A stretch of 64,000 nucleotides of DNA from positions 6,930 to 70,929 of IMG/VR virus record IMGVR_UViG_3300028895_000202; one strand, written 5' to 3'. The first letter of the stretch is position 1. Each line of letters begins with the position of its first letter. Shown in pieces: positions 5,032 to 64,000 of the stretch. Under the pieces are notes generated by a model. It was not told the DNA's origin. It saw only the letters and a list, made by a program, of their open reading frames with translations, and ran no database searches. Origin of the DNA: a virus. A program made the translations under genes and the position numbers.

Positions 5032-8000
5032 ATGGCCGACATCGCTACACTATCAATCAAGATTGACACTGCCGATATCAAGCGCGCAAAAGGCGAGCTT
5101 ACGGCACTCGAAGCGTCAGTCAAGGCCATCTCAAAGGCACGCATCAATCCGGGTACGGCGCTGGGTATCCGCGACATCGTCGACGCCATGTCGCAGCTGG
5201 ACAAGGTAAACTACGTCCGTGTGCGGACGACGATGGCGTCAGTCTCGAACCTATCGAAGGTACTTAATTCACTGCCAACTCGCGCACTGCCTTCTAGGGC
5301 TATAGCGTCACTAGCAACATCACTGCAAGAGCTTAGTCGCGTGGATGGGGCTAAGCTAACTAGAGTTACTACAGCTATTGCGGCCCTTGGGCCAGCGATG
5401 GACACCCTGAAGGGGGCGGCTGGACTGCGTCCAGCCACTCTTGGCAACCTTGCGAAATCGCTGGTAGCTATCAGCGCGATAAACGGTGGGCAGGTAGCGG
5501 AGTCAGCCAAAGGTGTGCGAGCACTGGGTGCGGCACTTCGATCGATGCCTGCCAAGGCTGGTACGTCCCCCGCCGCTATTAGCAACCTTGCGAAGTCGCT
5601 GGAAGCTATCAGCAAGATAAACGGCGGGAAGGTAGCGGAGTCATCCAAGGGCATGCGCGCCCTTGGTGCCGCGCTACAAGCGATGCCTGCCAAGGCTGGT
5701 ACGTCCCCCGCCGCTATTAGTAACCTTGCGAAGTCGCTGGCGGCCATTAGCAGGATAAATGGTGGGAAGGTAACAGAAGCGGCTGCAGGTATGCGAGCCC
5801 TTAGTGCCGCGCTACAAGCGATGCCAACTAAGGTCGGCACGTCACCAACCGCTATAAGCAACCTTTCAAAGGCGCTACGGCAGATCTCAAACTTGAGCGG
5901 CCAAAAGCTGGTTGACATTTCCAACTCGATGCGTCAGCTTGGGCAGGGCCTCTCGGCCTTCTCCGGCGTAAGGTTCCGCCCGAAGTCGATATCAAACTTC
6001 GCCGTGGCACTAACCGAACTGTCACGGGTCGACGCAGCCAAGCTGAGGGCTGTAGCCAAAGCACTTAGCCAGATAGAGCGTACTGGAACGGGTAGAAGCA
6101 TAGAAGCGCTGACAAAGTCCGCCCTTCAGGCAGCCCGCTCCATAGAGCAACTCCAGGTGCGGACTAAGCGTCTTGAATCAAGGCTTAATCCTGCCAGAGT
6201 AACTGCGTTTGGCCGTGCGTTGTCATTCGTCGGTAGTGCTGCTGGGGGCGCTGTCGGTGCTATTCGACGCACGGTCTCTTCCATCACTACCCTAGGAGCC
6301 AAGATGCGTACATTCAGGGCCAACATCCTCAATGTTGGCGCTGGATTCTTGGTGTTCTCATTTCTGCAAAGATCTGTTGTTCAACTCATCAAGCCGATTC
6401 GTGAGTTCGAGACAGCACTGGTCAACATCTCGAAGACGACCAACCTGACGGGTAGAGACCTACAAGACCTCTCAGACGAACTCCTATCCATTGCCAGCAA
6501 CTCGGTTGCCACCACAGACCAGCTGCTGCAAGTGGCCGGTATCGCTGGTCAGCTTGGCGTTAAGGGAAGGAGCGACATCCTAAAGTTCGCAGACACGGTA
6601 ACCAGACTTGCCGACGCTGCACCGTCTCTCCGAGGTAGCTTCGAGCAGACCGCTCTACAACTGGCTCGTGTGCTCAACATCACTGGTGAGGGCATCGGCA
6701 AGGTTGACAGGCTGGCCTCTACCGTACTGAAGCTGGGTAACAACTTCGAGGCGCTGGAAAGCACCATCCTCAAAACTACGATTGAGGTTGCTGCTGCGTC
6801 GGCAGCCTTCGGTGTTACCTCCGCTGACGCTGCGGCTCTTGCAACCGCACTTGCCCGAGTTAGTGTACCGCCGGAACGTGGCCGAACGGCAATCATCACC
6901 ACGATGAAAGCCATCTCTGACGCTCTGAGAAGTACTGGTGAGGATGCCCAGAACTTCAATCAGATAATCGGAACTGGAAGCGTCAAGGCCCTGCAAGAAC
7001 TATTCAAGAACGATCCGACCGAAGCCTTCCTGAAGCTGGTAGAGGGTCTACGCGCTGTCCGAGACGGAGGCGGGGACGTTACGGCAACGCTGAACAGGCT
7101 TGGCCTGAACTCCATTCGTACTCAAACGTCTATCCTGGCACTGCTGGGTAGCACCGAGAAGTTCCGAAGGGCACTCTCCCTTGCACGGGAAGAGTTCGCC
7201 ACAACGGGCGATGAACTGGAACGAGTAACCAGGCTCGCTAGTGATCGTCTTGACGCTGCGTTTGTGCGACTGACGAACACGTTTAGAGGGCTCCTAATCG
7301 AGTTCTCGAAGACATCTGGGCTTGAAACTGCCCTGCGCGATTCACTTGAACTGATCAGTGACATAGCCAGGTCTATCAGCCCAAACACCGTCGATCAAGT
7401 CGGACAGTTCGCTGGTAACGTCAAGCGGCTTCGCGACCAGCTTCTTGGAGTCAAGAAGGATGATGCGCTGAACTCTGCGTTCTCAAACCTTGAGAACTAC
7501 AGGGAACTTATAGGTAAGATTGGCGACTTTGTAAGGTCAGTCAGTGGCGGTGTCATAACCACGGCAGCGTCTTTCGCCAGCTTGTTCCTCGCCAGCCGAG
7601 CACTCAGCATCGGACTGAGCACGGTACTGTCACCACTTGGCCTAATCTCACTTGGCATCACTGGAGCGGTAGGACTCCTGGACAAGTTTGGAGACAAGGC
7701 ACTCCGTGTCGGTGATCAGTTTGTCAGGCTTCGCGATGTAGTCAAGGCAATCGGCCAAGAATCCGCGAGACGCCTCGAATCGTTCATCCAGGTTGTGGGT
7801 GAGATCGCCTCAAAGCAATCCGCGCTAACAAGCGCAGTCCTGGAAGACATCCTCAGCATAGACGAGAGTAAGCCGGGGGATGTATTCGACAGGATACTCG
7901 ATGCGGCGGATATGGCTGTGGAGTACATCGGCGATCAATGGGTGACCACGCTTGCCAAGGTAGAGACGAGCTTGCTTAAGATAGGCAACTCCATGCGATC

Positions 8001-26454: not shown

Positions 26455-27471
26455 ATGGCTCACATGATCAACACCACCGACAAGTTCGCGGAAGTTCGTT
26501 ACAACGGGCAGCGTGCGTGGCACGGCCTCGGCATCGGGCTGCCCCAGGAAGTGGAGTCCGCCTCCGAGGCCTTCGAGTTCGTCGGCCTGGACTGGCGCAC
26601 CGACAAGCAGCCCGTGTTCTACACGGGTCCTAACGGCGAGAAACTCACGGTTCCGGGCCAGTACGCCCACCTCCGCGAGGACACTGGCGAGCTTCTCGGC
26701 ATGGTTGCCGAGCGGTACAAGCCGCTGGAGAACAGCGACCTCGCTGATTTCGCTGACGCCGTCGCCCTGACGGCTGAGGGCGCTGCCCGGGTCGAGACCT
26801 GTGGCTCGCTGCGTAGCGGCAAGACCGTGTACGCCCTGATGGCCCTTGACAAGGACATCGACATCAACGGCGACGTGACGAAGCCCTACATCATGGTCAG
26901 CAACGGCCATGGTGGCACCTCCGGGCTCCGCGCCTACTTCACGGGCGTCCGCGTCGTCTGCGCCAACACCGAGGCCATGAGCCTCGCTGACCTCGGGACC
27001 GGCGTCAGCTTCGCCCACACGGGTGATGTGGCTGCCAAGATCGAGGCCGCCAAGATGGTCCTGGGTCGCGCTACCGAGGCCGTCAAGAAGTTCGAGTCCG
27101 AGGCGTATCACCTGACTGGTGCGTCCTGGAACAAGAAGGAGATGGAGGAGGCGCTCCGGACCGTCTGGGAGGTCGTCCACGCCGACGCTCTGCGCGGCGC
27201 TAAGACCTCCAAGGCCGTCCGGGACAGGCTGACGCAGCAGTGCGATGAGGATGTCGCCCGTTGGCTGGAGCTTGCCTCTGCCGATGGCAACTCCGTGGCC
27301 TCGACGCAGGGGACGGCCTTCGCCGCCCTCCAGGGTGTGACCTACGACCTGGATCACACGCCTGCCGCTCGCCGGAAGCTGTCCCCCGATGCGCGGATCA
27401 ACAGCCGTCTGTTCGGCACCTCCAGCCGGATGAAGAGCCGGGCGCGAGCCGCCATGCTCCAGCTGGTCTGA
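26455..27471 (+). CDS. DUF932 / TIGR03299 phage-plasmid protein
   Basis: MAHMI...AWHGLG, YKPLEN, ETCGSLRSGK, NGHGG and VRVVCANT motifs. Confidence 0.85.
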   Translation: MAHMINTTDKFAEVRYNGQRAWHGLGIGLPQEVESASEAFEFVGLDWRTDKQPVFYTGPNGEKLTVPGQYAHLREDTGELLGMVAERYKPLENSDLADFADAVALTAEGAARVETCGSLRSGKTVYALMALDKDIDINGDVTKPYIMVSNGHGGTSGLRAYFTGVRVVCANTEAMSLADLGTGVSFAHTGDVAAKIEAAKMVLGRATEAVKKFESEAYHLTGASWNKKEMEEALRTVWEVVHADALRGAKTSKAVRDRLTQQCDEDVARWLELASADGNSVASTQGTAFAALQGVTYDLDHTPAARRKLSPDARINSRLFGTSSRMKSRARAAMLQLV

Positions 27472-43218: not shown

Positions 43219-43617
43219 ATGAACTTCGACGAGTACCAGAAACTAGCGATCGAGACAGCCTCCCCAGCCAACAACGCTACCATGCAGGTGGCCGACTTCT
43301 ACGTCTACCCTGGTTCTGAGGTAGCGAAGTCAGATATGGCAGGCGTGCTTCGTATGCACTATGGCGCGATGGGGCTGTGCTCTGAGGCAGGCGAAGTTGC
43401 TGGCAAAGTCAAGAAGATCATGCGTGATGACCTCTGTAATCCAGACGCGAAAACCGTGGATGCTCTAGCTTCTGAGGTTGGCGACGTGCTTTGGTACGTC
43501 GCGTATATCTGCGACGTTATTGGAATTGACATGAGCGAGGTTGCGAGCCGCAACCTCTTCAAGCTGCGGCAGCGCGCCTCGCGTGGCACGCTGACCGGCA
43601 GCGGGGATCAGAGGTAG
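43219..43617 (+). CDS. mazG: MazG-like nucleotide pyrophosphohydrolase
   Basis: MNFDEYQK; GL.SEAGEV; EVGDVLWY; N..KL..R..RG...GSGD.R. Confidence 0.88.
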   Translation: MNFDEYQKLAIETASPANNATMQVADFYVYPGSEVAKSDMAGVLRMHYGAMGLCSEAGEVAGKVKKIMRDDLCNPDAKTVDALASEVGDVLWYVAYICDVIGIDMSEVASRNLFKLRQRASRGTLTGSGDQR

Positions 43618-43618
43618 A

Positions 43619-43975
43619 GTGCTGAGGATCGCAAGGAAGCTGGCCGAGAGGGCCGAGTCCAGGTTCAAGCATGGAGCTGTGATCGCGAAGGGAAACCGGG
43701 TGCTTGGCTGCGGCATCTGCGACAGCACCAAGACGCACCCGAGGTGGGGGTCTGGCCCTATCTGCTCCATCCACGCAGAGGCTGCTGCCATCCGCGATGC
43801 ACTTAGCCGTGGAATCGACATTGCGAGGGCTACGATCTACGTTGCCAGACACGGTCGATGCAGCCACATCTCCCGCCCGTGCCCGGACTGCATGGAACTC
43901 ATCATTTCACATAACCTAAAGGCTGTCGTGTACACTACTGCTGATGGCGGCCACAAGATGGAGAAGCTACGATGA
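43619..43975 (+). CDS. Cytidine/deoxycytidylate deaminase-fold protein
   Basis: HGAVI; IHAE; SRPCPDC. Confidence 0.8.
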   Translation: MLRIARKLAERAESRFKHGAVIAKGNRVLGCGICDSTKTHPRWGSGPICSIHAEAAAIRDALSRGIDIARATIYVARHGRCSHISRPCPDCMELIISHNLKAVVYTTADGGHKMEKLR

Positions 43976-47556: not shown

Positions 47557-47810
47557 GCGATCTATACATGGATGACTTCGAGGAGATCGAAGAGATTCAC
47601 GTTCTATACACTGATGGCGGGGAGATCGAGGCCCGCTATCGTTTCCTGGGCGACGATGTCTGGGATTGGGTTTCTCTTGACGAGTACAGCGGCAGGCGTA
47701 AACGTCTGACGCAGTCTGCGATCGTGGAGTACATTGAGGATGCGCTGGGTGTTCCCGTTGCAAACGACTGCAATGTCACTCTCACGTGGGTTGACGATAT
47801 TGATGAGTGA
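47553..47810 (+). CDS. Acidic hypothetical protein
   Basis: GTGA-coupled ORF. Confidence 0.55.
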   Translation: MSDLYMDDFEEIEEIHVLYTDGGEIEARYRFLGDDVWDWVSLDEYSGRRKRLTQSAIVEYIEDALGVPVANDCNVTLTWVDDIDE

Positions 47811-48297
47811 GAAGCCCAAGAGGGAGCGCCGAGACGTGTCTATAGAGCCATACTCCGCGCCTATAGCAAGGACAGGACGCCGGATGGATCTACCATTCAT
47901 GGCGCCTATCCGGCGTGCTCCAGGGTCTCACCCTGTGTTCGGCTCCAATCCAGCGGCAGAGCTAGATGAGCACCTTCTGGCGAACATCCGAGCGGTGTGT
48001 CAGGGTGATGTCTCTCCGTCGTACAGCACAATAGCGGCGCGTGTCGGCGTTACGGAGGGTACGCTACAGCGGTGGCTAGATGAGTACCCGGCGCTTGCTG
48101 GTCAGATCGCGTCGTGGCGGGCCGACGGGCTGGCTGCGCTACGTAGGCGAGCTGCCGAGTTGGCTATGGAGGGCAACCCGCAGCTGCTGAAGATGCTCCT
48201 CGAAAAGCGCGATCCAGACTTCCGTGACGATCCTCGCGATGGCTTCTCCAGCGGAGCTGAGAGCGACGGAACCGCACCAGACCCCAGTTTCCTCTAA
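47803..48297 (+). CDS. HTH protein, terminase small subunit-like
   Basis: IAARVGVTEGTLQRWLDEYP HTH; A.EGN..LLK.LLE.R.P..RD C-terminus. Confidence 0.5.
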   Translation: MSEKPKRERRDVSIEPYSAPIARTGRRMDLPFMAPIRRAPGSHPVFGSNPAAELDEHLLANIRAVCQGDVSPSYSTIAARVGVTEGTLQRWLDEYPALAGQIASWRADGLAALRRRAAELAMEGNPQLLKMLLEKRDPDFRDDPRDGFSSGAESDGTAPDPSFL

Positions 48298-52183: not shown

Positions 52184-53194
52184 ATGATCACTTCTACTGA
52201 CATCACGGCGCTGCTCACTGAGTACGCTGCCGACATGGAGACCTACGACACGAAACTCGCTTCGCTAGTCGAGCAGCACCGGGGCATCCGGCTGGAGATC
52301 CAGCAGGAGCGCCGCGAAGTTCGACCGTCCAAGTTCCCACTACCCGCCGAGCGGGCCTTCCGCCGCGACCTCTACAAGTACCCGGCGTGGAGCGCCAAGA
52401 AGAGCACTGAAGCTGCCCGCCTCCTCGAATACTGCCGTGCCCGCTACGAGGACGACCCGAGCGAGGCGCGTGAGGCAGAACTTCACAGGGTTCGGGACCT
52501 CTTCGTCGTGCATAATATGCGCTTGGTACTCAAGAAGCTCGACAAGTATACTAAGCAAGACGACGACTTCCGCCTCGACCTTCTCCAGGAGTGCAGTCTG
52601 TCACTCTTCGATGCTGTCGATCGGTATGAGTGGCGGCGGGGCATCAGCTTTACTACTTACGCTTCCTACTGGGTCCACGAGCGTGCCATGAATACCTGTT
52701 ATGATCGGCATGTCGTGAAGGTTTCCAGGAGTCTCCAGAAGGAGGCTCGACGGGCAGCCAGCATCGCGTCCACCTACGAGTCTCTGGTTTCCGAGCAGGT
52801 TGCTGAGCAACTCGGTGTTAGCAGCGAGCGGGCGGACTACCTGCTCAGCCAAGACAGTCGTCGTACCATGTCGATCCATGGGCCCGACGACGGCGACGAC
52901 GAAGGTGAGATCGGTGATACCATCGAGGACGAAGGCTACGAGGTCTACAGCCCCAAGATGGAGGACATGTCTCCGAAGGATTGTGTGGCTGCGGCCATGG
53001 AGCGCCTGCTGGAGAGGGAGCAGGAGGTCATTGCACGGTACTACGGTATCGGCTGCGAGGCTCAGAGCATGCCTAGCATTGCCCGGGATCTCGGCGTTAG
53101 CTCTCAGCGGATCCAGCAGATTCACCGACGTGCGCTTGGGAAGATGAGCACGCACAAGATCTACAGCATCTCAGAGCCCTATCTGCCGTGCTGA
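52184..53194 (+). CDS. Phage-encoded sigma-70 family factor
   Basis: HNMRLV; DLLQE...L..AVDRY...RG.SFTTYA.YW (region 2); L.EREQEVI..YYG...IARDLGVS.QRI.QI..RAL.KM (region 4). Confidence 0.92.
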   Translation: MITSTDITALLTEYAADMETYDTKLASLVEQHRGIRLEIQQERREVRPSKFPLPAERAFRRDLYKYPAWSAKKSTEAARLLEYCRARYEDDPSEAREAELHRVRDLFVVHNMRLVLKKLDKYTKQDDDFRLDLLQECSLSLFDAVDRYEWRRGISFTTYASYWVHERAMNTCYDRHVVKVSRSLQKEARRAASIASTYESLVSEQVAEQLGVSSERADYLLSQDSRRTMSIHGPDDGDDEGEIGDTIEDEGYEVYSPKMEDMSPKDCVAAAMERLLEREQEVIARYYGIGCEAQSMPSIARDLGVSSQRIQQIHRRALGKMSTHKIYSISEPYLPC

Positions 53195-53795: not shown

Positions 53796-54043
53796 TGGAA
53801 TCCGGATACCTCAAGGCGTTTTGCCTCATGATGTGCAACGTGTCCCCTAGGGGCATTGCACAGTACGTCTACGGCAGCCAACACGAGCAAAGCTACCTTG
53901 GCGCTAAGGAACACAGTATCGCTACTGATCCGCTGCGGTGGGTCGCGACGCTGGACAGCGTCAGCCTGGGTAGGCTACGCAAGATGGTGGCGGACTACGA
54001 TTCGATGTACTTTTGCGAGGAGGATCATGTCAGCCAAGACTAG
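53795..54043 (+). CDS. Hypothetical protein, paralog of 63468..63689
   Basis: P....YVYG....YL..K.......PLRW...LD...L.RL pattern shared with 63468..63689. Confidence 0.6.
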   Translation: MESGYLKAFCLMMCNVSPRGIAQYVYGSQHEQSYLGAKEHSIATDPLRWVATLDSVSLGRLRKMVADYDSMYFCEEDHVSQD

Positions 54044-54452
54044 AGTATGGGACCAGCGCATGCTTGGCCTTGCTGAGCTGGTCGCTAGTTGGTCGAAAGA
54101 CCCCAGGACCAAGGTGGGTGCCGTCATTGCCGACACGAGCTTCAGAGTCTGTGGAGTCGGCTACAATGGCTTTCCCCGAGGCGTGATCGACGTTGCATCT
54201 CGCTTGGCTGATCACGACGCCAAGCATGCGTGTACGGTGCATGCTGAGGTGAACGCTATCCACAATGCCTCCCTAACCGAGGGCTGCACGATCTACACCA
54301 CGCTGGCCCCGTGCTCGCAGTGCATGGCGCAGATCATCCAAGCTGGAATCATTCGTGTGATTTACGGTAGGAGGCATGACAACATCGACTACACATATAC
54401 AGACACAATGGCGCGTGAGGCCAAGGTGATCCTGGAGCAACATCATGGATAA
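54027..54452 (+). CDS. dCMP deaminase
   Basis: SWSKDPRTKVGAVI; GYNGFPRG; HAEVNAI; PCSQC; GGAGG RBS. Confidence 0.9.
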   Translation: MSAKTRVWDQRMLGLAELVASWSKDPRTKVGAVIADTSFRVCGVGYNGFPRGVIDVASRLADHDAKHACTVHAEVNAIHNASLTEGCTIYTTLAPCSQCMAQIIQAGIIRVIYGRRHDNIDYTYTDTMAREAKVILEQHHG

Positions 54453-56739: not shown

Positions 56740-56820
56740 TTGAACCCGGGCGCTCATGGCCTATAATCTCTTCGTCGTGGCAAGGAGAGCCGCGACTCGA
56801 ACTCAACCACATAAACTACC
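56740..56820 (+). promoter_or_regulatory. Early promoter/leader cassette
   Basis: TTGAAC-16-TATAAT; GTCGTGGC/GCCGCGAC hairpin. Confidence 0.7.
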
Positions 56821-57012
56821 ATGAACGAGATCACCTTTGAGGAGTTTGTCGAGCGCCTTCGTTGGCTTGACTGGTACTACATGATGTCTGAGGACCCGTC
56901 GGCGTATCGCCGTGGGTGCGACGCGATCCGCAAGTACCGCGAGATCGCTGAGAGCCACGGGCAGGACTGGGTCGCTGCGTTTGACGCCGAAGAGCGCAAG
57001 CACTGCATTTGA
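56821..57012 (+). CDS. Early hypothetical protein
   Basis: DWYY.MS.D...Y.RG motif. Confidence 0.7.
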   Translation: MNEITFEEFVERLRWLDWYYMMSEDPSAYRRGCDAIRKYREIAESHGQDWVAAFDAEERKHCI

Positions 57013-57031
57013 CAACGGAGGGCTAGATACG

Positions 57032-57436
57032 ATGAATAACCAAGAAATCATCAAAAGCCTTGAGGCAATCATTGAGAGCCTGAAGACTGAACAAGAAACC
57101 ACTACCTTTGATTTTGGTAATGGACCTGTTCCTGCCCATAGGCACAAGAACCCTGATGGTAGTATCGGTGGTTGGGTAGCTAATACTGCCTATGTTGCTG
57201 ATACTGCCTATATTGGCGAAGATGCCTTGGTGTATGGCAATGCCAAGGTGTTTGGCTATGCCAAGGTGTATGATAGTACTAAGGTGTTTGGTAATGCCAA
57301 GGTGTATGATTATGCCAGGGTGTATGATAATGCCAGGGTGTTTGGTACTGCCTTGGTGTATGGTAATGCCTGGGTGCATGGTACTGCTATGGTGTGTGAT
57401 TATGCCGAGGTGTGTGGAGTGGAAGAAGTAAATTAG
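57032..57436 (+). CDS. Hexapeptide-repeat (left-handed beta-helix) protein
   Basis: H.NPDGS.GGWVA followed by (VYGNAK)n repeats; AT-rich codon usage. Confidence 0.8.
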   Translation: MNNQEIIKSLEAIIESLKTEQETTTFDFGNGPVPAHRHKNPDGSIGGWVANTAYVADTAYIGEDALVYGNAKVFGYAKVYDSTKVFGNAKVYDYARVYDNARVFGTALVYGNAWVHGTAMVCDYAEVCGVEEVN

Positions 57437-57487
57437 TAAGGAAAGGAAGCTACTAGAAGAACTACAGGCTAAGTACGGAGAAACCAA

Positions 57488-57979
57488 GTGAACATCTTCT
57501 ACCTCGATCACGACCCCCGTATCTGCGCTCAATATCACGCTGACGTTCACGTCGGAAAGATGATCCTTGAGACTGCCCAACTTCTAAGCACCGCTCACCG
57601 GGAGACGGACAGCATTTACTCCGACCTAGTTTACAAGAGCACGCACAAGAATCACCCGTCTGCGATCTGGGCACGTGCTTCACAGGACAACTATAGCTGG
57701 CTCTATGAGCTTTTCCGTGAGCTGACTAACGAGTTCTTCTACCGCCGCGAGAAGGTTCATATGTCTTGGGCCAAGCTAAAGTCTCCGCTTGCCAACAACC
57801 CAGACCTCCCCACTATCGGGTTCACGGAGCCCCCGCAGTGCATGCCCGACGAGTACAAGGTAGAAGGCGACGCTGTTTCGGCCTACCGAAGGTACTACAT
57901 GGGCGCCAAGGCGGATATCGCTAGCTGGCGATGGGGTCGTCTCGAACCCTACTGGTGGGACGTCCCGGTCTCGGTCTAA
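57488..57979 (+). CDS. Pyrimidine-dimer DNA glycosylase/DenV-related protein
   Basis: MNIFYLD.DP...A..H.D.HV.KMILE.AQLLSTAH; H.NHP; PQCMPD.YK; AYR.YY. Confidence 0.8.
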   Translation: MNIFYLDHDPRICAQYHADVHVGKMILETAQLLSTAHRETDSIYSDLVYKSTHKNHPSAIWARASQDNYSWLYELFRELTNEFFYRREKVHMSWAKLKSPLANNPDLPTIGFTEPPQCMPDEYKVEGDAVSAYRRYYMGAKADIASWRWGRLEPYWWDVPVSV

Positions 57980-57994
57980 ATCGGTGTCGCGTAC

Positions 57995-58180
57995 ACTCCG
58001 GCTGCGGTTATTGGCGTCGCTGTCGGCTGGAGTCAGGTGGGTTGGCCTGTTCTGTCACCCACCGTTTTTGAACACCTCGTGGTAGGTGTCTCCTTCGATC
58101 CGTCTGCCCGTCGAGCACGGGTGGTAGCGTGCAAAGCGTGCGTCACACGTCATGTGTGTCGTATGCCGGGCAGGCGGGTC
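57995..58180 (+). ncRNA. Candidate structured RNA upstream of tRNA-Arg
   Basis: Three hairpins plus a 14-bp stem (58097-58110/58167-58180) enclosing two sub-stems; many G-U pairs; no ORF. Confidence 0.4.
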
Positions 58181-58191
58181 ACCCTCCCCAC

Positions 58192-58268
58192 GCGCCCGTA
58201 GCTCAGCAGGATAGAGCATCGGATTCCTAATCCGAGGGCCGCAGGTTCAAGTCCTGCCGGGCGCGCCA
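58192..58268 (+). tRNA. tRNA-Arg (anticodon CCT)
   Basis: GCGCCCG/CGGGCGC acceptor stem; TCGGA-TTCCTAA-TCCGA anticodon arm; GTTCAAGT T-loop; GCCA end. Confidence 0.95.
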
Positions 58269-58305
58269 CTTACGTCAGCCTGCGCGGATTTCCGTCAAGT
58301 AGTGC

Positions 58306-58381
58306 TTGAGGTCTCGCCTACTCAGGCTAGATTCTCTCCGTCGCGGCAAGGAGGCCGCGCCAACCAACAACAACACACGCC
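58306..58381 (+). promoter_or_regulatory. Early promoter/leader cassette
   Basis: TTGAGG-16-TAGATT; GCGGC-AAGGAG-GCCGC hairpin; CA-rich leader. Confidence 0.7.
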
Positions 58382-58663
58382 ATGCAGAACGCCATCACCA
58401 AGCCCGCCCGCCTCGCCTACGTCATCTCCCGTGGTGAGGGCCGCGCCGACGACCGCTGGCCCGTCGGGGAAACCCGGGTCTACACCACGACACAAGCCTA
58501 CCTGATGAACGACGACCTGACCAGGGCAGCCAACGACCTCACCCACCCTGGCTACGACAAGTTCGACGTGGAGGTCATCTACAGCGACAACAGCCGCACC
58601 CACCACCGCCTGGACCTCGACTCGCACTTCTGCGGCCTCTTCCACGTCGAGGTCCAGCCTTGA
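58382..58663 (+). CDS. Early hypothetical protein
   Basis: Follows a cassette; high-GC3 codons. Confidence 0.7.
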   Translation: MQNAITKPARLAYVISRGEGRADDRWPVGETRVYTTTQAYLMNDDLTRAANDLTHPGYDKFDVEVIYSDNSRTHHRLDLDSHFCGLFHVEVQP

Positions 58664-58671
58664 CCCCACCT

Positions 58672-58792
58672 CGGGCGAGATCTCAGGAAGTTTCCCAAGA
58701 ATCTACTTGAGATCCCGGGTTCCTCGGCTAGATTCTCCCTGTCGGCGCGACAAGGCGCCGCGACACGCCACCCCAACACAGGGGACACTACC
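58672..58792 (+). promoter_or_regulatory. Repeated ~120-bp promoter/leader cassette
   Basis: TTGAGA-16-TAGATT; strongly similar to 59836-59950 and 60369-60485. Confidence 0.8.
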
Positions 58793-58990
58793 ATGCAGAA
58801 CGTGAAGAACATCATCAAGGACATTCAGGACGACCTGTACGAGGCGCTCGCAACCGACCTAGAACGTGGCGTAGCGTGGATGAACGACGAAGCCTGGGAG
58901 AAGTGGAGGAAGGACTACCCGACTCTCAATAGGGCAATTCAAAAGATTCTCGACATCGAAACCGAAAAACCTCTTGACGAGACCGCGTGA
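58793..58990 (+). CDS. Early hypothetical protein
   Basis: Follows a cassette. Confidence 0.7.
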   Translation: MQNVKNIIKDIQDDLYEALATDLERGVAWMNDEAWEKWRKDYPTLNRAIQKILDIETEKPLDETA

Positions 58991-59310
58991 GTCCGGTGGA
59001 AGACATGCAGAAGACGTACTGGGAGATGACGGCGAACAGCATCGAGGCACTCGACGAACTGCGCCAGCTGATGGCGATGGACAGCTTCGGTCGTGAGGAC
59101 GTCGAGTACTTCGTGCAGGCGGCGGACTACGCCGAGCTGACGCAGGGGTACAACTGCGAGACGGAGGCGGCGGCCACGCTGCTCCGCAAGCTGGCCGTCC
59201 GCCTGCTGACCGAGGGTTCGGGGATCCTCGCCATCGACGGTATCCTGCGCGACGAGGGGGCGACGGCGATCTTCGGGATGGAGGCTGAGGGCTCCTTCTC
59301 GTGGGACTAG
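58987..59310 (+). CDS. Acidic hypothetical protein
   Basis: GTGA-coupled ORF. Confidence 0.65.
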   Translation: MSPVEDMQKTYWEMTANSIEALDELRQLMAMDSFGREDVEYFVQAADYAELTQGYNCETEAAATLLRKLAVRLLTEGSGILAIDGILRDEGATAIFGMEAEGSFSWD

Positions 59311-59378
59311 CGCCGCGACCGTCATAAGCTGTTTGGCTGCAAGAGGTTACGGAACCCTGGATTTCTGGCAGAAGATGC

Positions 59379-59454
59379 TTGAGATCCAGGGTTCCTCGGC
59401 TACATTCTCCCTGTCGCAACAAGGCGACACCAACGCCACCCCAACACAGACGCC
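59379..59454 (+). promoter_or_regulatory. Early promoter/leader cassette
   Basis: TTGAGA-16-TACATT; TGTCGC-AACAAG-GCGACA hairpin. Confidence 0.75.
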
Positions 59455-59826
59455 ATGCAGAACACCATCCACGAGATCAAGCTCTCCTCCTCCCGCTCCA
59501 CCCTCACGCTGCACGGCCAGTACGTCGTCGATGCATGGGAACTCCAGCGCGAGTCCGACGATACCTGCCAGCGCATCCTGTCCATCAAGGACAAGATGGA
59601 GTGGTTCGACGGGTTCGCTCCCAAGGGCTGGCACCTGGAGTGCGTGATCCGCGATCGTGCCGGGTACGACGGCCAGCTGGAGGTCCGCTGCTCCCTGGTG
59701 CTGGATCCTGAGGTCGCCCCGACCGCCACCCTCGGGTCCGAGATGCTGCCGCCCAGCTGCACCCTGGAGCAGGCCGAGGGGGCCATCCACGCGATGCACA
59801 TGATGGTCGGGGGCTGGCTGTTCTAG
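59455..59826 (+). CDS. Early hypothetical protein
   Basis: Follows a cassette. Confidence 0.7.
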   Translation: MQNTIHEIKLSSSRSTLTLHGQYVVDAWELQRESDDTCQRILSIKDKMEWFDGFAPKGWHLECVIRDRAGYDGQLEVRCSLVLDPEVAPTATLGSEMLPPSCTLEQAEGAIHAMHMMVGGWLF

Positions 59827-59835
59827 CCCAGCCTA

Positions 59836-59950
59836 GGGCGAGATCTCGAAACTTTCCAACGAAGCTACTTGAGATCTCGCCAGCCTCTGCTATATTCCCC
59901 CTGTCGCAACAAGGCGGCACCAACACCACACCAACACAGGAGACACTACC
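59836..59950 (+). promoter_or_regulatory. Repeated promoter/leader cassette
   Basis: TTGAGA-16-TATATT; hairpin; AGGAGACACTACC before ATG. Confidence 0.8.
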
Positions 59951-60349
59951 ATGGTCAAGACCTACACCATCACGCGCAAGTCCAGCACGTACATGGAGGT
60001 TCCCACCACCACCGCCCTCCGTGCCATCCCGGAGGTCGAAGGCATGATCACGGGCGTGATCGTGTGGGAGGGGGTCACGAAGAGCGACCTCGCTGACGCG
60101 CACTACAACGCCCGCCGTGGCTGGCCGTCTACTCCCCGCGTCACGATGCGGGTCGTCGGACGCAACGGGGAGGTGTACTTCGGCACGAAGCCGAAGGCCC
60201 TCATCGGGTTCCAAGCGAGCGCCGTGGTGGCCTTCAAGGCCTCCTCCGTGTCCGAGTCCAAGAACGGCGCCGTGTCGTACTTCAAGCGTCCCAGCAAGGC
60301 CCGCGAGCTGGGCAGCCTGACGGAGGAGACGGGCTTCCTGCCCGCCTGA
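59951..60349 (+). CDS. Early basic hypothetical protein
   Basis: Follows a cassette. Confidence 0.7.
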   Translation: MVKTYTITRKSSTYMEVPTTTALRAIPEVEGMITGVIVWEGVTKSDLADAHYNARRGWPSTPRVTMRVVGRNGEVYFGTKPKALIGFQASAVVAFKASSVSESKNGAVSYFKRPSKARELGSLTEETGFLPA

Positions 60350-60368
60350 TCCCCTCACCTCTCACCCT

Positions 60369-60485
60369 CGGGCGAGATCTCAGGAAGTTTCCCGAGAATC
60401 TACTTGAGATCTCGCCTTCCCAGGCTATATTCCCTCTGTCGCAACAAGGCGGCACCAACACCACCCCAACACAGGAGACACTACG
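60369..60485 (+). promoter_or_regulatory. Repeated promoter/leader cassette
   Basis: TTGAGA(60404)-16-TATATT; hairpin; AGGAG RBS. Confidence 0.8.
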
Positions 60486-60731
60486 ATGTACAAGCTGGAC
60501 CTCCCCTACGACCTGCTCCTCTCCGCTCCCCGGCTTCTCGACGCGATGGTCTACGAGCGCAAGGGTGCCTTCGGCCTCGCCATCTACACCATGAACGGCA
60601 TGATCGCCCTCCGTCAGGAGCTGGAGGCCACCTCCGACGCCGACGCCATCCAGGAGGCCTACGCTCTTCTCCAGGCGTGGAAGGGCTTCGACGAGGAGAC
60701 CCTGGAGACGCTGGGCGTGAAGGCCGCCTGA
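60486..60731 (+). CDS. Early hypothetical protein
   Basis: Follows a cassette. Confidence 0.7.
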   Translation: MYKLDLPYDLLLSAPRLLDAMVYERKGAFGLAIYTMNGMIALRQELEATSDADAIQEAYALLQAWKGFDEETLETLGVKAA

Positions 60732-60790: not shown

Positions 60791-60979
60791 ATGGCTTACG
60801 AGACGAAGGAATTCCTCATCTCTGCGCTTGACAGCGACGGAGAGGAGATCAGAACGCGCATGAACGTCTCCCTCCCCGAGGAATCCCCCGCCGTCTACTT
60901 CCTGGACAACGCGTACGAGTACGCATGGCGCTGGGCCTCCAGGAACGACGTCGATCCGGACACCATCGAGATCTGCTAA
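60791..60979 (+). CDS. Small acidic protein
   Basis: AAGGAG RBS; MAYETKEF...; real start lies inside track ORF 60404..60979. Confidence 0.65.
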   Translation: MAYETKEFLISALDSDGEEIRTRMNVSLPEESPAVYFLDNAYEYAWRWASRNDVDPDTIEIC

Positions 60980-60992
60980 CTCAGCATGGGAT

Positions 60993-61093
60993 AATCGACG
61001 ATTAGAGATCGAATTCTGGCTTCCGTGGGGTTGACATGACACAGAACTCATACCACTTCACGGAAGCCGAAATTCGCTCTCTAATCGTCGATT
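60993..61093. repeat. Long imperfect inverted repeat (~35-bp arms)
   Basis: AATCGACGATTAGAGA..GAATT..GGCTTCCGTG pairs with CACGGAAGCC..AATTC..TCTCTAATCGTCGATT. Confidence 0.85.
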
Positions 61094-61192
61094 TTAAGGC
61101 CTGCGAGACCACTTAATGAACATACGCACAAGTGCGTAGAAATAGGCCAAGAAAAGCGAGCTTCCCATGGGGGTTATAAGTCTAAATGTGTC

Positions 61193-61219
61193 GTAAGTGC
61201 TTATCTGACAAGAACTTAG
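61193..61219. promoter_or_regulatory. Second copy of 27-bp palindrome
   Basis: GTAAGTGCTT-ATCTGAC-AAGAACTTAG. Confidence 0.5.
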
Positions 61220-61364
61220 ATCTATACATAGCAGCAGTGCTATATGTGATAGGTATCTTGTTATGGGTTACGGTATAAGGGGAAAGGAAGAAAGAACGAG
61301 TGATGACCAACAACCCTCGCAACTAGATCACGCCCTGGAACACCTCCGCTTCTTCAGGACTAAC

Positions 61365-61480
61365 GCATACCAGCCCGACCGCCCTACCAGCATACCAGCC
61401 CTACCAGCATACCAGCATACCAGCATACCAGCATACCAGCATACCAGCCTGACCGGCCTACCAGCCCGACCAGCCCGACT
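61365..61480. repeat. 8-9-bp tandem repeat (ATACCAGC)n
   Basis: A run of perfect ATACCAGC copies with degenerate flanks. Confidence 0.9.
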
Positions 61481-61537
61481 GCATGCCGTCACACGCTCCC
61501 TCTGTCCGATTACCGTTGGCCCCATTGGTGTAACATG

Positions 61538-62092
61538 GGCTGATTACCCTCGGTCTCGGTCTCGGTCTCGGTATGAGTCGGTCTGATTACTCTCGGTCTC
61601 GGTCTCGGTATGGGCAAGTCGGTCTGATTACTCTCGGTCTCGGTATGGGTAATTTACCCTACTTACTCTCGGTCTCGGTCTCAGTAAGTCGGTCTGCTTA
61701 CTCTCGGTCTCGGTCTCAGGACAATCACGTCTGATTACCCTGCTATGAGGATAGTCGGGTCTGCTTACCCTGATATCAGGATAGTGAGGTCTGATTACCC
61801 TGCGCCAGAGTAATCAGGCGTCAGGTCTGATTATCGTCCATATCAGGATAGCGGGGTCTGCTTACCCTGTGCCAGAGTAATCAGACGTGAGGTCTGCTTA
61901 CCCTGATATCAGGATAGTGAGGTCTGATTACCCTGATATCAGGATAACCAGGTCTGATTACCCTGATATGAGGATAGCGAGGTCTGATTACCCTGATATG
62001 AGGATAGCGAGGTCTGATTACCCGGCGCCAGAGTAATCAGACGTCAGGTCTGATTACTCTGGGGGTATGAGGATAGCGGGGTCTGCTTATTG
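61538..62092. repeat. Array 1 of GGTCTG(A/C)TTAC elements (~16 units, 30-41-bp period) with (CGGTCT)n tracts
   Basis: Cores at about 61538, 61580, 61621, 61691, 61728, 61758, 61788, 61824, 61855, 61891, 61921, 61951, 61981, 62011, 62047 and 62080. Confidence 0.92.
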
Positions 62093-62154
62093 TGGGCCCC
62101 GGGGGCGCCCCTCTCCCTGTTCAGGGTAGGGTGAGGATTTCTCCGAATTCAGGC

Positions 62155-62231
62155 TTGCATCCCCGGGATCCCCGGCTATATTCTCCCTTGTCGCGGGGAT
62201 GGTCCCGCGCGCTACCTACGGAGATACGCTC
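62155..62231 (+). promoter_or_regulatory. Early promoter/leader cassette
   Basis: TTGCAT-16-TATATT; CGCGGG/CCCGCG hairpin; GGAG RBS. Confidence 0.75.
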
Positions 62232-62879
62232 ATGACCACGCTCACCTCGTCCGCTAGCTGGAAGGCGCTTGACGCCATCACCGGGGGGCTCAGCAAGCCT
62301 TCCAAGATGCCTTCCTTCGGGTGGAGCATCCCCGCGCAAGCGTGCGGGATGGGCTCGCTGCTCCGGAAGGTCAAGGGGTCCCCCTGCTCCGGCTGCTACG
62401 CTCTGAAAGGGCGCTACGTCTTCCGGAACGTGCAGGGGGCCCTTGAGCGGCGTCTGGCCCTCTACAACGCCAACCCGGCGGCGTGGGAGGCTGCTATGGT
62501 CGCGAGCATCGCGAAGGCCGGGCGCGACGTCTTCCGCTGGTTCGATAGCGGGGACCTGCAGGGGCTCGCGATGCTGGAAGCCATCGGGCGCATCGCGTCG
62601 GCCCTTCCGGGCGTCCGGTTCTGGCTCCCGACGCAAGAGCGGGGGATCCTTCGGGAGGCTGAGCGGAACGGGTGGACCCCGCCCCCGAATCTCACGATCC
62701 GCGTGTCCGGCGCTATGATCGACCGGGAGCCGACCGAATCCCTCCCCGCGTGGGCCGTCCGGAGCATGGTCCGCACGTCCGGCCGGACGTGCCCGGCGCC
62801 CGATCAAGGGAACGAGTGCCGGGATTGCCGGGCATGCTGGGACCGGGAGGTTCCCCTGGTGAGCTACGGGAAACACTAG
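62232..62879 (+). CDS. GP88-family Cys-rich protein (radical-SAM-like)
   Basis: LSKPSKMP; C..CYA.KG.Y; FRWFDSGD; FWLPT.E; P.NL.IR.S; CPA....C..CRACWD; Y.KH. Confidence 0.8.
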   Translation: MTTLTSSASWKALDAITGGLSKPSKMPSFGWSIPAQACGMGSLLRKVKGSPCSGCYALKGRYVFRNVQGALERRLALYNANPAAWEAAMVASIAKAGRDVFRWFDSGDLQGLAMLEAIGRIASALPGVRFWLPTQERGILREAERNGWTPPPNLTIRVSGAMIDREPTESLPAWAVRSMVRTSGRTCPAPDQGNECRDCRACWDREVPLVSYGKH

Positions 62880-62904
62880 GGGAAAGGGGGAGAAATCCCC
62901 CTCC

Positions 62905-62956
62905 TTCCCATCCCCGGGAATGTGCTGGAAAGTGAGCACGTTCCCGGGGATGGGAA
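62905..62956. repeat. 22-bp-stem hairpin after gene
   Basis: TTCCCATCCCCGGGAATGTGCT/AGCACGTTCCCGGGGATGGGAA. Confidence 0.85.
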
Positions 62957-62957
62957 T

Positions 62958-63325
62958 TCTCGGTCTCAGTAAGGCGGGCTGCTTACTCTCGGTCTCGGTC
63001 TGCTTACTCTCGGTCTCGGTATGAGGATAAGGCGGTCTGCTTACCGTGGCAGGGGTCTGCTTACCCTGCCGCATGCATATCAGGATAGCGGGGTCCGATT
63101 ATCGTGGCGTATCAGGATAGCGAGGTCTGCTTACCGTCTCACCCTCATCAGAGCATATCAGGATAGCGAGGTCTGATTACCGTCTCACCCTGAACGGGGC
63201 GATATCAGGATAGTGAGGTCTGATTACCGTGATATCAGGATAGTCGGGTCTGATTATCCTGCACCACAGTAATCAGACGTGAGGTCTGATTACCGTGATA
63301 TCAGGATAGTCGGGTCTGATTACTG
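62958..63325. repeat. Array 2 of GGTCTG(A/C)TTAC elements (~11 units)
   Basis: TATCAGGATAG..GGTCTG(A/C)TTAC units separated by variable linkers. Confidence 0.9.
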
Positions 63326-63387
63326 TAGGCCTCCTGGGGGCCCCTCACCACACCCTGAGTAGGGTCAGGATTTCTCCGGGAATAGGC

Positions 63388-63467
63388 TTGAACCCTCCGA
63401 ACTAGGGTCTATGATTTCACTGTCGCGGCAAGGGAGCCTCCCGCCGCACTACCACGGAGACACAAGC
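63388..63467 (+). promoter_or_regulatory. Early promoter/leader cassette
   Basis: TTGAAC-16-TATGAT; GCGGC...GCCGC hairpin; GGAGACAC RBS. Confidence 0.75.
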
Positions 63468-63689
63468 ATGTCGAACGAAGCGAAGACGATCCTCCACCTC
63501 GCCCGCGCCCTCTTTAGCACCCCTCCCGCCGTCGTCGTTGCGTGGGTACACGGGGACGAGGCGCAAGGCTACCTCGAAGAGAAGGCGCGGCAGCTGCAGC
63601 GCTCCCCGTTCCGCTGGATCGGGGAGCTGGAACCCCCGCAGCTCGAACGGCTCACGGCCCTCGCGTGGTCCGCTCCCGACCCGAAGTAG
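63468..63689 (+). CDS. Early hypothetical protein, paralog of 53795..54043
   Basis: Cassette RBS; shared motif with 53795..54043. Confidence 0.7.
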   Translation: MSNEAKTILHLARALFSTPPAVVVAWVHGDEAQGYLEEKARQLQRSPFRWIGELEPPQLERLTALAWSAPDPK

Positions 63690-63695
63690 GCCGCA

Positions 63696-63745
63696 TCCCA
63701 GATCCGGGAATCTCGGGAATATATCCCAGATTCCCAGATCTGGGA
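63696..63745. repeat. Long hairpin after gene
   Basis: TCCCAGATCCGGGAATCTCGGGA-ATATA-TCCCAGATTCCCAGATCTGGGA. Confidence 0.8.
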
Positions 63746-63763
63746 ACGCCCCATACAGGGTGA

Positions 63764-63856
63764 GTAATCAGACCTGACGTCTGATTACCGTAGCATATCA
63801 GGATAGCGAGGTCTGATTACCCTGCATCAGAGTAATCAGACGTGAGGTCTGATTAC
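63764..63856. repeat. Array 3 (two 25-bp palindromes plus one direct unit)
   Basis: GTAATCAGAC-N5-GTCTGATTAC at 63764 and 63832. Confidence 0.9.
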
Positions 63857-63864
63857 TGAGACGG

Positions 63865-63900
63865 AGTCTCACCCTACCCTGAGTAGGGTGAGACTTTCTT
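63865..63900 (+). terminator. Hairpin between array and promoter
   Basis: AGTCTCACCCTAC/GTAGGGTGAGACT followed by TTCTT; related sequences at about 62110 and 63343. Confidence 0.55.
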
Positions 63901-63911
63901 CGGATTCATGC

Positions 63912-63993
63912 TTGCATCCTGCGGATCCGGGTCTATGATCTCCCTTGTCGCGGCGAGGAAGCCTCCCGCCGCACTACCTACGGAGACACTACC
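63912..63993 (+). promoter_or_regulatory. Early promoter/leader cassette for a gene starting at 63994 (runs off window)
   Basis: TTGCAT-16-TATGAT; hairpin; GGAGACACTACC-ATG. Confidence 0.75.
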
Positions 63994-64000
63994 ATGACGA

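Follow-up and report, generated by a model that had tools for sequence, protein, structure and literature searches.

Tandem arrays of an oriented core site among small-gene promoter cassettes of an uncultured phage

Tandem repeats onto which one DNA-binding protein is loaded in many copies, often by promoters, are found in P1 incA/oriR, F sopC, R1 parC, and the omega heptads of pSM19035, and direct repeats with occasional inverted pairs are the classical grammar of iterons and operators. The left end of phage T7 is said, after Dunn and Studier, to have short repeat arrays by the terminal repeat, ahead of A1-A3. Here, we describe a locus of an uncultured marine/sediment phage (IMG/VR record IMGVR_UViG_3300028895_000202) in which tandem arrays of one oriented 11-bp core stand between cassettes composed of a promoter, a 5' stem-loop, a ribosome-binding site (RBS), and a small gene. 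The record has 70,929 bp, belongs to the linear class, and is estimated to be 71% complete. The window, that is, the whole stretch of 64,000 nucleotides analyzed, covers its bases 6930-70929, and the array region lies at the far end of the contig.

As far as the available parts of the sources go, PeSL cassettes of T4-type phages have a promoter and a stem-loop ahead of ORFans, with the stem-loop upstream of or overlapping the promoter, and mediate cassette shuffling (PMC2839356). In T5, the first-step-transfer region makes up 7.9% of the genome and has three repeat regions among the pre-early genes (bioRxiv 10.1101/866236). The stoperators of cluster A mycobacteriophages are numerous asymmetric, oriented, intergenic sites of 11-13 bp (PMC9283540), and D29 Gp36 is a phage regulator that acts on direct repeats (PMC12266134). 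The feature described here is real, well delimited, and unusual. Its cassettes follow a known design, of which they are a new instance, and its arrays are a variant without a named counterpart.

Core Sites and Their Arrangement in Arrays

An unbiased k-mer count over seven arrays, three in the window and four in a close relative (described below), revealed GTCTGATTAC as the top 10-mer, with 29 forward and 9 reverse copies. It is the sole element found in all seven arrays; TATCAGGATA occurs in five of them and (TCTCGG)n words in four. In the window, the core GGTCTGMTTAC has 23 exact copies (22 on the + strand and 1 on the - strand), compared with 0.04 expected from shuffles. When up to one mismatch is allowed, there are 34 copies (29 + and 5 -) compared with 2.04 expected, all of which are located in 61537-63856. 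The other 61.5 kb of the window contain zero copies at this threshold, and a relaxed core search that covered all 70,929 bp of the contig, and hence also the 6.9 kb preceding the window, detected nothing outside the array stretch. Three arrays, which total ~1.1 kb, were distinguished in the window:

61537..62090, + strand: array 1, with 16 forward cores; its first part consists of (TCTCGG)n-type units of 37-70 bp
62976..63323, + strand: array 2, with 11 forward cores; units of 20-47 bp, two of them of 46-47 bp, and one dyad at 63269
63764..63856, + strand: array 3, with 3 forward and 2 reverse cores, which make up two dyads and one 32-bp unit

In the remainder of array 1, ATATCAGGATAG and the core form units of 30 bp, and dyad units of 36 bp are located at 61810, 61877, and 62033. 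An earlier note, made from the sequence of the window, had counted 16, 11, and 3 forward units, and these numbers were reproduced with a relaxed core pattern. It had also proposed six dyads, and all of them were found where it had placed them (61810, 61877, 62033, 63269, 63764, and 63832). Their pattern is GTAATCAG(A/G)C-N5-GTCTG(A/C)TTA(C/T), 25 bp in length, and those at 61810 and 61877 are imperfect. Judged by their symmetry, the dyads look like operators for a dimer, which agrees with the dimeric sites assumed at that time. On the other hand, the description of the whole region as a palindromic site array does not hold: most units contain a single oriented core, as the forward excess of the 10-mer also indicates, reverse cores occur solely as the left half of 25-bp dyads, and the perfect 12-bp palindrome CCTGATATCAGG has merely three copies. 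The same is true for the idea of about 30 phased sites at three helical turns, since just 8 of the 27 core-to-core intervals are 30 bp; five are 36 bp and the remainder fall within 20-70 bp.

Conservation was examined over the 51 forward sites of the two phages. The GG preceding the core, which lay outside the search pattern, is conserved at 92% and 98%, and T at position +11 at 86%. These positions have an information content of 1.3-1.9 bits, positions +9 and +10 of ~1.0 bit, and the remaining flank positions of <1 bit, and the full oriented site reads GG-TCTG(A/C)TTAC-YNT. A few unit types, in recombined variants, make up the linkers; among these, a conserved block AT[AC]T[CG]AGGATA (mostly ATATCAGGATAG) has 12 copies with a variable left neighbor. 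In both the window and the relative, conservation of the core greatly exceeds that of the linkers, a comparison which the earlier note had set beforehand and through which its binding sites came unharmed. Such a difference fits a binding site. In the unit listings, read by eye, the variable pair of the linker palindromes in the 46-47-bp units is mostly G/C or A/A and never A/T. This pair is non-compensatory, which argues against an RNA hairpin there.

The small arrays (array 3 of the window and arrays A and B of the relative) consist of two dyads and one unit. Their last core is located 55-75 bp upstream of the -35 element and belongs to the conserved cassette. Large arrays resemble expansions, in which ATATCAGGATAG stands in place of the left half-site. 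No core overlaps any -35 or -10 element. Core orientation matches the gene strand (29 + vs. 5 -, with all genes on +), although other polar processes would be indistinguishable from transcription in this respect.

Several identities of the arrays were considered and rejected. A CRISPR array is incompatible with core spacing of 20-70 bp and with linkers of a few recombined types rather than unique spacers. The earlier note had already reached this conclusion, and no cas family was found among the proteins scanned (59 with Pfam and 28 with PHROGs, a set that includes some but not every small open reading frame (ORF)). As promoters for a phage sigma factor, the units offer no 16-18 bp spacing between conserved blocks that fits. 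A restriction decoy was dismissed because the sites are not avoided in the rest of the genome (GATATC, 16 vs. 11.5 expected; GGTCTC, 37 vs. 42.3). Regarding translation, stops are present in the 36-bp units, although one frame of the 30-bp unit is open, and ORFs reach 49-53 aa. A by-eye check for likeness to IHF, LexA, Fur, MetJ, and tetO sites gave none that was convincing.

Stoperators share with the cores the presence of dozens of asymmetric intergenic sites whose orientation follows transcription. However, in the available descriptions, they are single sites dispersed over the whole genome in short intergenic gaps, one of which is in the early promoter, whereas the 34 sites found here with up to one mismatch are confined to tandem arrays over 2.3 kb and leave the promoters free. 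Their repressor is a two-domain monomer of the L5 gp71 type, and two helix-turn-helix (HTH) candidates of the present phages had no match to it below E = 0.2 among PDB sequences. The present phage, moreover, looks virulent. Stoperator identity was rejected on the ground that every core site is in a tandem array and not dispersed. Taking together the three DNA-level readings that are discussed below, we consider it quite probable that the cores are protein-binding sites on DNA.

Promoter Cassettes, Hairpins, and Cassette Genes

The earlier note had seen one architecture three times in succession. Three array modules are indeed present, but nine copies of the underlying cassette of promoter, 5' untranslated region (UTR), RBS, and gene are found in the window, and their -35 elements start at 56740, 58306, 58707, 59379, 59869, 60404, 62155, 63388, and 63912. 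Together with four cassettes of the relative, 13 cassettes can be aligned. They have a -35 element CTTGAN, a 16-bp spacer, a -10 element (G)CTAnATT, a stem-loop TGTCGCGGC..GCCGC, and a GGAG RBS with the stretch CACTACC..GGAGACAC, followed by ATG. Each leads to one, sometimes two, unrelated small ORFan genes. Since the same promoter family drives six array-less cassettes upstream, the view that the arrays are interleaved with the earliest genes is unsupported. The cassettes and the other elements of the region are as follows:

56740..60488, + strand: six array-less cassettes (-35 at 56740, 58306, 58707, 59379, 59869, and 60404) with one or two ORFans each
60993..61093, + strand: long imperfect hairpin after a 62-aa gene (60791-60979); 35-nt arms, 91% complementarity, 31-nt loop; -59.7 kcal/mol, z = -9.8
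61100..61330, no strand: low-G+C non-coding stretch (G+C 0.38-0.46, the lowest of the region, vs. ~0.57 for the genome) inside a 1.17-kb gene-free gap (60980-62150)
61365..61479, + strand: TACCAGCA array, 8-bp unit, ~10 copies; C-rich and G-poor, GC skew -0.41 to -0.45
62095..62231, + strand: first array-module promoter region; element ..CCCTGTTCAGGGTAGGGTGAGGATTTCTCC, -35 TTGCAT at 62155, -10 TATATT at 62177, 5' stem-loop, GGAGA RBS
62232..62879, + strand: GP88-like gene, 215 aa, Cys-rich, Pfam GP88 (PF17338)
62880..62956, + strand: two hairpins after the GP88-like gene, the second with 22-nt arms, 95% complementarity, and no U tract
63325..63467, + strand: second array-module promoter region; element ACCCTGAGTAGGGTCAGGATTTCTCC, -35 TTGAAC at 63388, -10 TATGAT, 5' stem-loop, RBS
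63468..63689, + strand: ORFan gene, 73 aa
63696..63745, + strand: hairpin after the 73-aa gene; 21-nt arms, 90% complementarity; -37.5 kcal/mol, z = -6.4
63857..63993, + strand: pre-promoter hairpin of the third array module, GAGAC..GTCTC plus CUCACCCUAC-CCUGA-GUAGGGUGAG, then UUUCUU, terminator-like in the scan
within 63857..63993, + strand: third array-module promoter; -35 TTGCAT at 63912, -10 TATGAT at 63934, 5' stem-loop, RBS
63994..64000, + strand: start codon of the next gene, truncated at the contig end

A consensus promoter scan returned 10 putative sites, compared with 2.7 +/- 1.7 in shuffles, and six of the nine window cassettes passed it. The note had assigned a sigma70 promoter to each array module. 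All three align with the cassette family, but one of them (63388) passes the consensus scan; those at 62155 and 63912 have a TTGCAT -35 element and fail, and are called promoters because both align with that family. CTTGAC-N17-CTATAT, which we take to be the alphaproteobacterial sigma-70 consensus, would suit the cassette; we regard this as a lead to the host and not as a result.

The long hairpins at 60993, 62905, and 63696 that had been noticed earlier proved to be real (z = -9.8, -9.9, and -6.4, respectively). The second value belongs to the fold of 62880-62960, which includes both hairpins of that spacer (-61.2 kcal/mol). A stable stem-loop is present directly after the upstream gene in all seven array-bearing modules, with z between -4.7 and -9.9, and these post-gene hairpins have no U tracts. 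The pre-promoter element ACCCT..AGGGT, which was described as a conserved hairpin, is conserved in sequence; as a fold, it beats shuffles in one of the three window modules (z = -5.2 at 63855-63905; +0.9 and +0.6 in the other two) and in one of the three elements folded in the relative.

All repeat families are on the transcribed strand. The minimum of G+C, 0.38, is at 61200-61299, adjoining the largest array, and the other arrays have no such neighbor. Cumulative GC skew near 58 kb shows a maximum, not a minimum. We also observed that the composition of the TACCAGCA array on the transcribed strand is that of a Rho-utilization site and that this array is positioned between the array-less and the array-bearing cassettes.

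Pfam analysis of 10 cassette proteins assigned no family to nine of them, and the tenth had one weak match under the curated cut-off. Fourteen cassette proteins of the two phages are mutually unrelated, each being seen in just one phage. The cassette genes at 62232-62879 and 63468-63689 have a G+C content of 0.66-0.76, compared with ~0.57 for the genome and ~0.50 for the arrays. A value above that of the genome suggests that these genes may have been acquired recently from a source of higher G+C. In other phage records, relatives of the GP88 family are found at the beginning or the end, among small genes. Homologs with ~50% identity occur in the IMG/VR contigs L011, L012, and L013, and three of four such contigs have 7-bp AAGCNNC arrays flanking the GP88-family gene. 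These arrays have up to 14 copies and lie by a palindrome and a TTGACA promoter in low-G+C phages; the grammar is similar and the repeat is unrelated.

The cassettes share several features with PeSLs, including a strong sigma-70-like promoter plus a stable stem-loop between the stop codon and the next RBS, ORFan genes, and a hyperplastic region in which even very close relatives differ. In three array-less cassettes (58707, 59869, and 60404), a 12-bp inverted repeat, GGCGAGATCTCA / TGAGATCTCGCC, overlaps the -35 element, and a stem-loop in this position characterizes one PeSL subclass. There are differences as well. PeSLs belong to T4-type myoviruses, whereas the present phage has siphovirus-type tail genes, a map of ~80 kb, and its own sigma factor; the cassette here adds a conserved 5'-UTR stem-loop; and the distal stem-loop and the promoter are split by arrays of up to 550 bp, of which the available part of the PeSL source gives no description. 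On the basis of this organization, we take the cassettes to be working like PeSLs in a different phage lineage; since the polymerase and the large terminase match those of Mardecavirus-type Vibrio siphophages best, they are not PeSL members by descent.

Genome Map, Close Relative, and More Distant Phages

A dyad scan of metagenome contigs yielded two contigs of a close relative, L014 (4,031 bp) and L015 (11,818 bp), which overlap with 99.9% identity. The far end of L015 corresponds to bases 1-2337 of the contig of the window at 98.6% identity. The map therefore closes in the order of arrays, ~9.5 kb, large terminase, and portal, with a total of ~80 kb, in which the ~9.5 kb are known from the relative alone. 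Looking beyond the window, as the earlier note had recommended, thus added four array-bearing cassettes (A to D), which have 47-bp units; all 21 core sites of L015 are inside arrays. The last cassette of the relative (L014 2330-2735) contains a 45-bp unit 3x and a 16-bp GATGTCGCATT unit ~9.5x followed by two inverted copies, and each of these repeat families adjoins a short hairpin just upstream of the cassette promoter. Downstream of the arrays are two hairpins of very high stability (z = -6.2) and two direct repeats of 24 bp, followed by a short block of opposite-strand ORFs with HTH proteins and an HNH endonuclease among their products. A distance of 3-9.5 kb separates the arrays from the large terminase gene downstream of them in the closed map; a strong terminator marks their end, and a C-tract-rich gap with the two 24-bp repeats follows. 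By arithmetic, the segment from the 1.17-kb gap to the terminator is ~6 kb, or ~7.5% of the map. The early-gene region spans at least 11 kb. The large terminase of the relative (L015 3277-6117, - strand; 946 aa) has an intein-like insert at approximately residues 222-684, the HNH endonuclease gene (L015 7247-7627) is ~1.1 kb upstream of it, and a small terminase subunit was not recognized.

Array and promoter DNA is 70-86% identical between the two phages, compared with 98.6% for structural genes. The idea of cassette shuffling in the earlier note fits this strong difference of the region between such close relatives. In the best-matching cassette, the flanks are unrelated between the phages (the hairpin before and the first codons after), and both continuations are seen as loose ends in sequencing runs; it should be noted that cassette A of the relative may be a paralog, not the positional counterpart, of the third cassette of the window.

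Exact pieces of the arrays were found in Logan contigs of four runs from four studies: 61773-61920 in all four, 61994 or 62029 to 63242 in three, and 61481-61697 in one. No Logan contig spans a whole array, and total unit counts rest on one assembly. Variation between runs was also observed. One unit of array 3 is absent from variants in all four runs (joints 63791/63792 to 63830), and the copy number of the TACCAGCA array differs by a 75-bp skip and a 7-bp insertion. The gene at 63994, which is cut by the contig end, has a continuation that is seen as a loose end in run X2. Among the runs listed as containing the window sequence, none is an RNA run.

Every long ORF of the window is on the + strand. 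The contig begins within the portal gene, followed by genes for scaffold, major head protein, and adaptor, and then by tail genes of siphovirus type. The subsequent replication block encodes an exonuclease, a DnaB-like helicase, a helicase-primase, a Toprim protein, PolA, a clamp-loader-like ATPase, gp32-like and RecA-like proteins, and an SbcCD-like nuclease. A sigma-70-family sigma factor (52184-53194, + strand; 336 aa) has regions 2 and 4 above the Pfam cut-offs and a weak region 3, and downstream of its gene are two tRNAs and then a run of small genes. As far as can be judged from these assignments, the gene content looks like that of a virulent phage of siphovirus type. The nearest isolated phages are distant, namely Mardecavirus-type Vibrio siphophages, whose identity is 28% for PolA and 40% for the C-terminal part of the large terminase. 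Two dCMP/cytidine deaminase-like genes (43619-43975 and 53856-54452), a gene for a MazG-like pyrophosphohydrolase (43219-43617), and one for a DUF932 protein (26455-27471) were also found in the window, the first three of which hint at possible nucleotide-pool or DNA-modification functions. An 18-bp tandem repeat (~10.5x; 57229-57417, + strand) inside ORF 56912-57436 codes for a hexapeptide-type repeat and is unrelated to the arrays.

Searches for counterparts of the arrays were largely negative. BLAST analysis of the arrays against phage (50,697) and plasmid (72,556) records gave no array match; at the nucleotide level, the array region matched the phage records solely in 46 bases within the GP88 gene. 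Exact-pattern scans of IMG/VR for the dyad, the 30-bp unit, and the pre-promoter element had zero matches. A looser two-core pattern found 77 loci in IMG/VR, and all but one (L065) look like chance or coding repeats. In this unrelated phage contig, at L065 9066-9258, ~12 tandem 15-bp units with the identical 10-mer GTCTGATTAC are followed by a 37-bp unit 3x. L065 shares no protein with the present phage, which points to chance or a shared host factor. In a genome collection of 185,579 species, a scan for the dyad, which the earlier note had proposed for candidate hosts, returned one single-copy match, in a Clostridia metagenome-assembled genome, which we take as chance; no host-side array was detected.

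When used as an IMG/VR probe, the large terminase gave no relatives, and a portal profile gave 80 loci. Portal relatives P0001 and P0002 have 92% and 79% identity. Among the closer portal relatives (L097-L101, 47-49% identity), no comparable arrays were detected by Tandem Repeats Finder with a filter of period >=6, copies >=4, and span >=80 bp. Two distant portal relatives (identity of 35-37%) possess large non-coding arrays that precede the portal gene by 2-9 kb and have long C or T tracts beside them: L134 has a 30-bp unit ~13x at 7241-7671, and L154 has 87-bp and 28-bp units at 1037-3551. In another locus (L176 6853-7208, from G001, a 105.9-kb record with a 39% identical portal), ~58 GGTCT(G/C) hexamers form two blocks, each with an RBS and running from ATG to a stop. 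Based on this reading frame, the blocks probably encode two small MQ(GL)n peptides and are not a DNA array, and the (GGTCTS)n array of G001 was dropped as a related array.

Possible Roles of the Arrays

That a protein binds the arrays, which protein this is, and what its binding does are points that we infer from the arrangement described above. Our preferred, still tentative, hypothesis is that a single sequence-specific protein binds the clustered sites of the arrays on double-stranded DNA and thereby controls or insulates the distal early cassettes. The stretch would then be the distal part of a hyperplastic early-gene region in a phage map of ~80 kb, built from at least 13 cassettes that would be mobile regulatory cassettes of the PeSL kind. 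In the last cassettes (three in the window and four in the relative), the spacer between the post-gene stem-loop and the promoter is filled with tandem units. In its basic form, as in the small arrays, the element would comprise two dyad operators at a distance of 55-75 bp upstream from the -35 element, and large arrays may have arisen from it by unit duplication. The binding protein is probably phage-coded, and candidate HTH genes exist at 47734-48297 of the window and at 7988-8368 and 6824-7138 of L015. Its effect might be control of the distal early promoters or insulation, with a timed shut-off or a polar block of read-through in the manner of stoperators. Control is supported by operator-like dyads near promoters together with the existence of phage regulators that have dozens of oriented sites. 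In addition, the stem-loops after genes and the terminator-like element before a promoter suggest that the arrays may lie in transcription-shielded spacers.

Several observations weigh against this hypothesis. Two of the HTH candidates were compared with PDB sequences, and no match below E = 0.2 was obtained, including to the stoperator repressor; they have no relative of known structure, and the binder was not found. The lack of cores over -35 or -10 elements makes simple steric repression impossible. Six cassettes of the same family lack arrays, and the irregular spacing misfits a cooperative phased filament. The TACCAGCA, (TCTCGG)n, 45-bp, and 16-bp GATGTCGCATT families share the same spacers, so that one protein cannot explain all of them, whereas general satellite growth would. 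Because post-gene stem-loops have no U tracts, the arrays may be transcribed. Finally, the arrays are present in just two variants of one lineage, which gives little evolutionary depth.

A replication origin with iterons appears unlikely, although it comes next in our estimation. The 1.17-kb gap would be the origin and the core an iteron of the initiator, which would bind direct repeats as a monomer and dyads as a dimer, and the downstream arrays would be auxiliary or titrating sites. The G+C minimum of 0.38 beside the largest array speaks for such a role, as do the presence of a long hairpin, a low-G+C stretch, and three direct-repeat families in the gap and the fact that the phage encodes its own replisome (DnaB-like, primase, PolA, clamp-loader-like, gp32-like, and RecA-like proteins). 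However, at least seven arrays are scattered across ~6 kb among promoters, unlike known origins, and the first array alone has a low-G+C neighbor. No initiator adjoins the arrays, whose neighbors are ORFans or GP88-family genes, and the replication genes are 11-34 kb off. The skew maximum near 58 kb does not favor an origin either. Iteron and centromere arrays are likewise tandem direct repeats with occasional inverted pairs, but they are regularly spaced and adjoined by a cognate Rep or Par gene, whereas spacing is irregular here and no such gene was found.

Somewhat less likely still is a signal of the genome end. The end of the DNA that is first to enter the cell would then be made up of the array-bearing cassettes, and the arrays would pause staged entry as proposed for T5, serve terminase recognition, or protect the end. 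Their position agrees with it: the arrays are upstream of the large terminase gene, with the terminator and the C-tract gap with two 24-bp repeats following them, some distant portal relatives (L134 and L154) carry large arrays just upstream of packaging genes, and GP88-family genes occur at the start or end of other phage records. The ~6 kb, ~7.5% of the map, can also be compared with the 7.9% of T5 (bioRxiv 10.1101/866236). On the other hand, IMG/VR found no end repeats, and contig depth across runs had no consistent two-fold step such as a long terminal repeat would give, nor were sites reported at which many molecules start or stop. That no small terminase subunit was recognized is a further point against it, and Mardecavirus (~40% in the large terminase) is gene-dense upstream of the terminase and has no arrays there.

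With the T5 repeat regions and their injection-stop signal (iss), the present arrays share, as far as the available description goes, the interleaving with strongly promoted small genes and a segment of ~7-8% of the genome, and the function of the T5 repeats is likewise unproven. The likeness to T5 drawn in the earlier note stands in these respects, but the paired DnaA boxes of iss have no counterpart, since TTATNCACA (the E. coli consensus only) has zero copies in the window. Moreover, the T5 regions are in mapped terminal repeat and first-step-transfer DNA and are highly conserved among relatives; here, the arrays are placed by their position in the closed map, they vary strongly between the two phages, and one oriented 11-bp core underlies all of them. 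The T7 arrays, as reported, are non-coding and directly upstream of several strong host-type early promoters, which is similar, but they adjoin a mapped genome end, once per end, whereas the present ones recur between successive genes. A specific form of staged entry, in our opinion improbable, is that the array-bearing cassettes are the first-entering segment of ~6 kb (~7.5%), each array acting as a brake via a host protein or an ejected phage protein. The two-step injection of T5 would thus have a multi-stage version in a marine phage lineage unrelated to it, based on one oriented 11-bp site, with DNA held until the just-exposed gene is expressed, and the 1.17-kb gap would be the last stop before the remaining genome.

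Functionless satellite expansion in the spacers, tolerated or mildly favored as homology for crossing-over and shuffling, has a similarly small chance of being the explanation. Several unrelated repeat families share the spacers, unit-level indels occur among runs, arrays and promoters are at 70-86% identity compared with 98.6% for structural genes, and the 14 unrelated cassette proteins are each specific to one phage. PeSL cassettes mediate such shuffling in T4-type phages, according to the available part of the source (PMC2839356). However, a core that is near-invariant over ~50 copies while linkers drift, and that is kept in all seven arrays, would not be expected, ~1.1 kb of arrays in the window alone would be costly in a capsid-limited genome, and the repeated promoters already supply recombination homology.

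It is also conceivable, with no better prospects, that the arrays function at the RNA level. Transcribed at the 3' end of the upstream message and cut off at the long hairpin (an RNase III-like substrate), they would serve as a non-coding RNA rich in repeats, such as a sponge. Read-through into the arrays is plausible considering that the post-gene hairpins (21-35-nt arms) lack a U tract and that a hairpin with UUUCUU stands ahead of the next promoter, and the location of every repeat family on the transcribed strand is in accordance with it. So is the CAGGATA motif, with at least 12 copies, which we take to be loosely like GGA-repeat sponge RNAs. However, an Rfam scan returned tRNA only and no RNA family on the arrays. 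The pre-promoter hairpin beats shuffles in merely two of seven modules, the variable pair of the linker palindromes is non-compensatory, and the core is single-stranded in most units and paired in dyads only.

A partition or tethering centromere of a plasmid-like prophage, which the dyad-bearing tandem units might recall (sopC/parC), can practically be dismissed, given the virulent-phage gene content, the absence of a similar array from 72,556 plasmid records, and the absence of ParA, ParB, ParR, integrase, recombinase, and replication-initiator families from the scanned proteins (59 with Pfam and 28 with PHROGs), which likewise leaves the partition centre and the recombinase handles of the earlier note without a partner. 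A nucleoprotein coat and a sponge for a host protein, two further roles put forward there, are conceivable as well.

Most documented examples of repeated promoter/stem-loop cassettes that shuffle ORFans come from T4-type phages. That an uncultured siphophage lineage, unrelated to these, uses the same design suggests a general way in which phages build and trade host-takeover genes. For the arrays, with approximately 50 oriented copies of one site among early genes, the searches of 50,697 phage and 72,556 plasmid records gave no counterpart. If a protein binds the arrays, they would represent a new regulatory or DNA-handling device, and the region would offer strong promoters, insulators, and multi-copy operators in one compact natural system. 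If the arrays instead mark the entering end, they would constitute a second, independent staged-injection system beside that of T5, which is itself unsettled.

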